This document shows positions 54,633-55,922 of a stretch of DNA of 64,000 bases, in pieces. The notes under the pieces are model-generated. The model saw only the letters and a program-made list of their open reading frames with translations. It was not told where the DNA came from and did no database searches. Position numbers and translations under genes: made by a program. Within the stretch, counting starts at the first letter, position 1. The number at the start of each line of letters is the position of its first letter. The stretch lies in the NCBI RefSeq assembly GCF_054482595.1, contig NZ_CM137008.1. One strand, 5' to 3'.

Positions 54633-55922
54633 ATGAAAGTATTAGTGATTGGTAACGGCGGGCGCGAGCACGCGCTGGCCTGGAAAGCGGCCCAGTCGCC
54701 GCTGGTTGAGACTGTTTTTGTTGCTCCGGGTAATGCAGGCACTGCGCTGGAACCCGCGCTGCAAAACGTTGCTATTGGCGTGACCGATATCCCGGCGCTG
54801 TTGGATTTCGCACAAAACGAAAAGATTGATCTGACCATCGTCGGCCCGGAAGCGCCGCTGGTGAAAGGCGTGGTCGATACCTTCCGCGCCGCCGGGCTGA
54901 AAATCTTCGGCCCAACCGCAGGTGCGGCCCAACTGGAAGGCTCAAAAGCGTTTACCAAAGATTTCCTGGCCCGCCATAAGATCCCTACGGCGGAATACCA
55001 GAACTTCACCGAGGTAGAACCTGCGCTGGCGTATCTGCGTGAGAAAGGCGCGCCAATCGTCATTAAAGCGGACGGTCTGGCTGCCGGGAAAGGCGTTATC
55101 GTGGCGATGACGCTGGAAGAAGCGGAAGCGGCTGTTCACGATATGCTGGCGGGCAACGCTTTTGGCGACGCGGGTCATCGCATCGTTATCGAAGAGTTCC
55201 TCGATGGCGAAGAAGCGAGCTTTATCGTGATGGTGGACGGCGAGCATGTGTTGCCGATGGCTACCAGCCAGGATCACAAACGCGTAGGCGATAAAGATAC
55301 CGGACCAAACACGGGCGGGATGGGCGCTTACTCCCCCGCGCCGGTAGTAACCGATGAAGTTCATCAGCGCACCATGGAACGTATCATCTGGCCAACCGTG
55401 AAAGGCATGGCGGCGGAAGGCAACACCTACACCGGTTTTCTCTACGCGGGCCTGATGATCGACAAACAGGGCAATCCGAAGGTTATCGAATTTAACTGCC
55501 GCTTTGGCGATCCGGAAACCCAGCCGATTATGCTGCGCATGAAGTCCGATCTGGTTGAGCTCTGCCTGGCAGCCTGTGAAGGGAAGCTGGACGAGAAAAC
55601 ATCCGAGTGGGATGAACGCGCTTCTCTCGGCGTGGTGATGGCTGCGGGTGGATATCCGGGCGATTACCGCACCGGCGATGTGATCCACGGCCTGCCGCTG
55701 GAAGAAGTGGCTGACGGCAAAGTGTTCCACGCGGGCACGAAACTGGCGGATAACGAGCAGGTAGTGACCAGCGGCGGGCGCGTACTGTGCGTCACCGCGC
55801 TGGGTCATACCGTGGCAGAAGCGCAGAAACGCGCTTATGCCTTAATGACCGATATTCACTGGGACGACTGCTTCTGCCGGAAAGATATTGGCTGGCGCGC
55901 TATCGAACGCGAGCAGAACTAA
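54633..55922 (+). CDS. purD: Phosphoribosylamine-glycine ligase
   Basis: 429 aa; MKVLVIGNGGREHALAWKAAQSPLV; ATP-grasp fold. Confidence 0.98.
   Translation: MKVLVIGNGGREHALAWKAAQSPLVETVFVAPGNAGTALEPALQNVAIGVTDIPALLDFAQNEKIDLTIVGPEAPLVKGVVDTFRAAGLKIFGPTAGAAQLEGSKAFTKDFLARHKIPTAEYQNFTEVEPALAYLREKGAPIVIKADGLAAGKGVIVAMTLEEAEAAVHDMLAGNAFGDAGHRIVIEEFLDGEEASFIVMVDGEHVLPMATSQDHKRVGDKDTGPNTGGMGAYSPAPVVTDEVHQRTMERIIWPTVKGMAAEGNTYTGFLYAGLMIDKQGNPKVIEFNCRFGDPETQPIMLRMKSDLVELCLAACEGKLDEKTSEWDERASLGVVMAAGGYPGDYRTGDVIHGLPLEEVADGKVFHAGTKLADNEQVVTSGGRVLCVTALGHTVAEAQKRAYALMTDIHWDDCFCRKDIGWRAIEREQN

Follow-up and report, generated by a model that had tools for sequence, protein, structure and literature searches.

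A four-base-pair overlap of the convergent purD and zraR genes of Escherichia coli, conserved across enterobacterial genera, and a putative purHD terminator within zraR codons

The window, a 64,000-nucleotide stretch of contig NZ_CM137008.1 (assembly GCF_054482595.1), contains two transcription units that converge tail to tail. On the + strand lies purHD, made up of purH (53032..54621; TIGR00355, 909 bits) and purD (54633..55922), the latter encoding a phosphoribosylamine--glycine ligase of 429 amino acids that covers its family model from end to end (TIGR00877, 633 bits, positions 1-425 of 425) and has a crystallised counterpart in 1GSO; the annotation agrees for both genes. Facing it on the - strand is zraSR, whose last gene, zraR (55919..57244), encodes a sigma-54-dependent response regulator of 441 amino acids (NF007689, 989 bits, model positions 1-441 of 441; structure 1OJL) and is preceded by the sensor kinase gene zraS (57241..58617, -; NF007688, 887 bits), present both in the list of open reading frames and in the annotation. 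The zraR start and the zraS stop share 4 bp (57241-57244), which fits the ATGA arrangement commonly seen in translational coupling.

Several features of the surroundings deserve mention in their own right. Rfam models place an rRNA operon (5S, 23S, StyR-44, one tRNA and 16S) just upstream of purH at 47409-52417 (-), and elsewhere in the window they mark a lysine riboswitch (21836-22032, +), STnc430 (19634-19783, +) and four copies of the REP-derived naRNA4 (5949-6019, 10178-10248, 19849-19920 and 42458-42535, -). At the far side of the zra genes, the zraP stop TAA (59278-59280, +) converges on the yjaH stop (59282-59284, -) with a spacer of 1 nt, and convergent neighbours abut the zraP-zraSR block on both sides; in a Salmonella locus (L108) the zraP-yjaH spacer is about 130 nt. 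Upstream of zraP, at 58804-58819 (+), is a sigma-54 promoter-like sequence, TGGCACGGAAGATGCA, with one mismatch to TGGCAC-N5-TTGCW, a pattern whose number of matches over the whole window is at chance level; the same scan gave no equally good match on the - strand for zraS. The part of zraR encoding the receiver domain holds a 12-bp tandem repeat of 2.4 copies (57099-57127, about codons 40-49), which encodes a ten-residue segment, and the ZraR lengths seen in E. coli (437, 441, 443 and 445 amino acids) correspond to in-frame changes in its copy number. The 437-residue form is common, with clusters on 88-188 contigs. The ZraR protein homology search in which length variants were found was dominated by variants from E. 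coli and E. albertii, and other genera were absent from it.

At the junction itself the + strand reads gag cag aac TAA cgc gac (55911-55928). The purD stop is TAA (55920-55922, +), and the letters cta at 55919-55921 give TAG as their reverse complement, which is the stop of zraR (55921-55919, -); the tetramer CTAA at 55919-55922 is common to both. The original prediction held that these two stops overlap and that no intergenic space lies between the genes. Both statements proved correct: the sequence, the open reading frames, the family models, the RefSeq and K-12 annotations and the C termini of the PDB chains all place the ends here, and the two coding sequences overlap by 4 bp. Among the 5,426 complete E. 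coli genomes, 5,420 matched a 1-kb query over the junction, several strains at 100% identity. The window comes from E. coli, and RefSeq annotates the identical purD/zraR overlap in one of the strains at 100% identity. The same 4 bp are shared in K-12 MG1655, where zraR occupies 4203320-4204645 and purD 4204642-4205931, and since zraR comes before purD in these coordinates the window runs in the opposite orientation to K-12. A small hairpin can be folded across both stops (55913-55936), but its pairing is rich in A-U and G-U and it lacks a U-tract, and Rfam has no family at the purD/zraR junction.

This is an ordinary, annotated tail-to-tail overlap of 4 bp, neither rare nor a chance oddity. 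Two genuine coding genes lie on opposite strands, their ends are correctly placed, and the shared tetramer belongs to the allowed set CTAA/TTAA/CTAG/TTAG. A statistical study of 58 prokaryotic genomes (PMC2174442) found that the lengths of convergent overlaps jump at 4 nt and that this peak arises through just these four tetramers. The same study counted 58 convergent overlaps in E. coli, reported a predicted rho-independent terminator for one of the genes in 19 of them, and pointed out that the terminators of such overlapping pairs must fall within the coding sequence of the partner (PMC2174442).

For the comparison with relatives, metagenome contigs were searched for DNA that could encode the PurD C-terminus WRAIEREQ, using a degenerate pattern that is blind to the sequence downstream, and tblastn confirmed about 90 genuine purD loci whose PurD is 52-100% identical to the query. 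In all loci with a convergent zraR (ZraR 84-100% identical) the spacer is exactly -4 by way of CTAA, with purD ending in TAA and zraR in TAG; the latter is the stop in 29 of 29 distinct enterobacterial zraR 3' ends. Exact-sequence look-up named loci from Salmonella enterica (L108), Citrobacter portucalensis and the C. freundii complex (L141, L168) and Klebsiella oxytoca (L139). A Citrobacter werkmanii locus (L003) came from a contig search with the ZraR protein, which was swamped by generic sigma-54 activators and gave this one enterobacterial locus, the other 79 serving as a paralog control. As read from these sequences, the overlap is shown to be conserved across genera, in Salmonella, the Citrobacter freundii complex and Klebsiella oxytoca-like loci.

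Around the shared tetramer the last purD codon varies (AAC, CGC, AGC) with C always in the third position, and the last zraR codon is always CGT. CTAA at 55919-55922 is itself invariant wherever zraR is convergent. TTAA would be synonymous for purD and would turn the zraR stop into TAA, a change neutral for both proteins. CTAG would turn the purD stop into TAG with a synonymous zraR Arg codon and would likewise be neutral for both; CTAG is generally avoided in enterobacteria, which could explain why that alternative is absent from the junction.

Elsewhere purD has other neighbours. In two enterobacterial lineages, L175 and Citrobacter koseri (L130), zraP-zraSR is absent and purD faces yjaH. 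The C. koseri locus has a REP-like palindrome after purD, at about 8258-8337, and in L175 the 86-nt spacer (3405-3490) consists of what is left of the zraR 3' end, in decayed form. At loci whose PurD is about 80% identical, a canonical terminator lies in the intergenic space, GGGCCTGCGGGCCC and then 5-7 T. As an aside, PurH encoded at 5396-6952 of the C. koseri-like locus is 73% identical to that of E. coli, with an adjoining PurD at 95.6%, while PurH of other Enterobacteriaceae is at 92-95%; this purH may be a replaced or divergent gene.

With the stops interlocked, either gene can be damaged by a change in its partner, as two loci illustrate. In an E. coli locus from Logan SRR7133066 (L204, 2780-2930) the last purD codon has changed from AAC to AAA (N429K), which turns the zraR TAG into TAT; ZraR there has 469 amino acids and the purD/zraR overlap has grown to 88 bp. 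In CP177213.1 (L203, 2780-2930) about 110 nt of the 3' part of purD differ in nucleotide sequence and end in GAG TAA, with the zraR side unchanged; the zraR TAG has become TAC, ZraR is 456 amino acids long and no purD gene is called there. The purD of this second locus may be an engineered or recoded gene.

Beyond the purD stop, the purD-sense RNA can form a hairpin at 55967..55996 (+), which we regard as the putative stem of a purHD terminator. Its arms, ACGGGCGGC (55967-55975) and GCCGCCCGU (55988-55996), pair in a GC-rich stem of 9 bp around a 12-nt loop, starting 45 nt past the stop, and it is followed by a U-rich tail, UUUCUCC (55997..56003, +), identified from the sequence and the junction comparison; hairpin and U-tract together (55967-56003) lie 45-80 nt inside zraR. 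By minimum free energy as well as by comparison of lineages this is a stable GC-rich stem-loop: taken alone, the element has a folding energy of -21.9 kcal/mol (z = -3.8; 0 of 200 shuffled sequences reached that stability), and its counterparts in other lineages have -20.5 to -23.6 kcal/mol. The U-tract in E. coli is UUUUCUCC (four U, counting the paired U at 55996), that of Salmonella, Citrobacter and Klebsiella-like loci is UUUUUUCC, one Klebsiella-like group has UUCUUUC, and L175 has UUUUUUU. Opposite the hairpin, zraR encodes E415-K416-T417-G418-G419-N-K-T-E-A424-A425-R426, the twelve residues of the helix-turn-helix motif, and the codons that form the stem are those of T417-G418-G419 and A424-A425-R426.

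Two properties speak against a terminator: the U-tract of E. coli is weak and the loop, at 12 nt, is long. A consensus scan, which allowed loops of 3-8 nt, missed the hairpin because of that loop; the promoter and terminator sites that it did return were at chance level (2 terminator-like sites against 2.6 expected). A purHD 3' end near K-12 position 4204564 (minus) is absent from the Term-seq tables of PMC7815308, which are curated and thresholded, so that absence from them is not proof of absence; between 4204000 and 4205199 these tables have no entry besides a Rho region antisense to purD. No mapped purHD or zraSR 3' ends were found in the searchable parts of TERMITe, nanopore RNA-seq, a 3'-seq meta-analysis, ExcludonFinder, Dar and Sorek 2018 and a terminator-prediction paper, and a literature search for 'purHD terminator' returned nothing relevant.

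That Rho region bears on the end of the opposite unit. Direct RNA-seq with and without bicyclomycin (BCM) in LB (PMC7815308, supplementary file 2) identified a region of Rho termination with its top score at 4204911 (+), antisense to purD, where the Rho score is 4.28 (p = 5.7e-8); upstream and downstream reads number 74 and 17 without BCM and 172 and 169 with it. This position lies 266 nt past the zraR stop, at about 55653 (-) of the window, and coincides with a stretch in which C exceeds G, although the Rho score was computed over 800-nt windows and its resolution is coarse. In our composition scan the zraR-sense RNA from +100 to +340 nt past the zraR stop holds 35-38% C and 22-29% G, a C/G ratio of 1.4-1.8; the RNA upstream of the termination zone is untranslated, C-rich and G-poor, the kind of RNA that Rho needs for loading. 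We therefore propose 55580..55820 (-) as the probable Rho loading and termination zone for zraSR. The BCM-sensitive RNA could also come from a separate antisense start and not from zraSR read-through.

We favor, as the probable though by no means assured reading, that the conserved 4-bp overlap with its interlocked CTAA stops joins two units each of which ends inside the coding region of the other. The zraP-zraSR block sits flush against purHD, with the stops interlocking as CTAA. Transcription of purHD would run 45-80 nt past the purD stop into the 3' end of zraR and would end at the GC-rich hairpin and U-tract encoded in the ZraR helix-turn-helix codons, two steps for which the comparative support is good. 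Transcription of zraSR would pass the zraR stop, the RNA becoming untranslated, and would be ended by Rho within about 100-350 nt in antisense purD, as published data and base composition suggest. Such an arrangement would leave about 350 bp (~55650-56000) open to transcription on both strands, so that the two mRNAs would carry complementary 3' ends.

Seen against this model, the original prediction fares unevenly as a whole. Its argument that the lack of intergenic space leaves no room for separate terminators starts from a wrong premise: no intergenic space is needed because each unit most likely terminates within the coding region of the other, purHD at a hairpin and U-tract inside zraR and zraSR at the published Rho region in antisense purD. 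The lack of intergenic space itself stands, and so does the antisense overlap of the purHD and zraSR transcripts, which is supported by the presence of zraR-purD in the ExcludonFinder list (PMC12288877) and, indirectly, by the published Rho region antisense to purD. Transcriptional collision, or cross-talk between purine synthesis and zinc stress, is conjecture.

Three other explanations have to be weighed against the favored model. The notion that the overlap is an artefact of annotation or of ORF calling, one gene truly ending earlier, has nothing beyond general possibility to recommend it and we give it practically no credence. The curated NCBIfam models span PurD and ZraR in full, to their ends, and the crystallised proteins stop at identical residues: residues 141-441 of ZraR align to 4-304 of the 304 in the 1OJL chain and residues 1-429 of PurD to 3-431 of the 431 in 1GSO, the last residue being included in each case. 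Misannotation of the two ends is refuted by these models and chain ends, and both stops are in addition conserved across genera. More substantial, though in our judgement still unlikely, is the proposal that the hairpin arises incidentally from the protein motif and from codon usage, and that purHD is ended only by Rho, or diffusely, deeper in antisense zraR. The GG...AA residues of the helix-turn-helix do favour complementarity between GGC and GCC, both of them common codons, and codon bias may contribute to the synonymous conservation of the stem. In addition, the site is without a listed Term-seq 3' end in PMC7815308, and the purD-sense RNA farther downstream is C-rich, its C/G ratio rising as high as 2.1 near 56100, a composition that would be favourable to Rho; against this last point, PMC7815308, which covers growth in LB only, reports no Rho region on the purD-sense strand there. 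Distant sigma-54 activator paralogs that have the GGN..AA motif (n=41) form 5-7 of the 9 pairs at the equivalent codons, but 7 is their maximum and none reaches 9. Against a by-product stands, too, the synonymous conservation of the stem, where codon choice varies far less than at Gly, Ala, Thr and Arg codons elsewhere in the alignment. Over the last 100 codons of the 29 zraR 3' ends, codon entropy averages 0.15 bits for the six stem codons, compared with 0.77 for the 31 other codons of invariant amino acids; the probability of drawing six codons of such low entropy is about 0.001, or about 0.005 if the draw is confined to four-fold and six-fold degenerate codons, and the codons of G429, A413 and A437, other Gly and Ala residues of the identical alignment, vary freely. 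L175, moreover, keeps the hairpin after the coding constraint was lost with zraR, with one G-U wobble and a T-run grown to 7, while the stretch from the purD stop to the hairpin has degenerated and includes a deletion. By codon entropy, L175 and the 41 paralogs alike, conservation of the hairpin exceeds what the overlapping coding sequence requires. This comparison of sequences shows the hairpin to be more than a by-product of the helix-turn-helix motif, and it is because of the stem-codon conservation, the paralogs that lack the pairing and the retention in L175 that we take it as the intrinsic terminator of purHD. The hairpin and U-tract at 55967-56003 are thus most likely a terminator, which we call putative.

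The remaining alternative is regulation of the excludon type, in which polymerase collision, RNase III cleavage of the complementary 3' ends, or both, would allow zinc-induced zraSR to lower purHD expression, and the reverse. We regard this as distinctly doubtful. The purD and zraR transcripts must overlap, and ExcludonFinder lists zraR-purD among 165 convergent overlapping pairs of MG1655, each detected in at least 50% of 58 RNA-seq data sets, with yjaH-zraP listed too (PMC12288877); yet a 4-bp overlap of the coding sequences makes overlap of the full-length mRNAs trivial, the call is almost automatic when both genes are expressed, and the listing adds little. It can also be said in favour of such regulation that zraR-sense RNA covers about 270 nt of antisense purD before it is terminated by Rho, and that CTAA is invariant even though neither protein would be affected by TTAA or CTAG. 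On the other hand, purHD gives no sign of depending on zraPSR in the lineages that are without it, and zraSR is a weakly expressed sigma-54 operon. No regulatory effect, reciprocal expression or RNase III processing of the purD/zraR pair was found in published data, and the purD row in one table of a p19 dsRNA study consists of small, uninformative values. The more specific idea that the invariant CTAA and the convergent zone of about 350 bp form a functional excludon, coupling zinc and envelope stress through zraSR to purHD by way of collision or RNase III, strikes us as improbable. Were it true, a doubly constrained terminator in the ZraR helix-turn-helix codons would set how far purHD transcription invades zraR.

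As a discovery the junction is of low significance, the purD/zraR overlap being already known from the reference annotation, as a member of a textbook class and from lists of overlapping E. coli transcripts; the comparative evidence for a purHD terminator in the ZraR helix-turn-helix codons is the only added value here. The locus nevertheless makes a clean worked example of a putative terminator in the codons of the opposite strand, with the natural deletion in L175 showing which part of the remnant stays. It also carries a warning for genome engineering, in that altering the last purD codon, or exchanging exactly the purD coding sequence, removes the zraR stop and adds 15-28 residues to ZraR, as L203 and L204 demonstrate.

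It is useful to set the junction beside known systems. SEnd-seq work on E. coli has reportedly found bidirectional intrinsic terminators that serve both of two convergent genes, and the junction resembles them in having a palindromic hairpin that lies between or within convergent units. The geometry excludes such a role for our candidate: it sits within the zraR coding sequence, 45 nt ahead of the stop codon, and on the zraR strand it is followed by CAGUUAGGG instead of a U-run. On account of this position and of the missing U-run, the hairpin can serve purHD only. To intrinsic terminators in general it is alike in its GC-rich 9-bp stem, less plainly in the U-rich tail directly after it, and in its distance of 45-80 nt past the end of the last purHD gene, a place where relatives carry a REP element or a canonical terminator; it differs in lying within coding sequence of the opposite strand, in its 12-nt loop, in the weak U-tract of E. 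coli and in being absent from the 3' ends listed by Term-seq in PMC7815308. The proposed end of zraSR resembles Rho termination after a stop codon as described in PMC7815308, in that read coverage antisense to purD falls in a BCM-sensitive manner and C begins to exceed G about 100 nt past the zraR stop; the differences are that the region here is resolved to an 800-nt window and that its RNA may originate either in zraSR read-through or at a separate antisense start. With convergent excludons (PMC12288877) the locus shares antisense-overlapping mRNAs, and the pair is listed for MG1655, but a functional excludon entails mutual exclusion of expression and RNase III processing, whereas purD/zraR is known only as a transcript overlap. 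The closest relationship is to the 4-bp convergent overlaps of PMC2174442, from which the junction shows no material difference: the geometry is identical, with stops on opposite strands that have the central TA in common and CTAA as the tetramer, and purD/zraR is one instance of that class.
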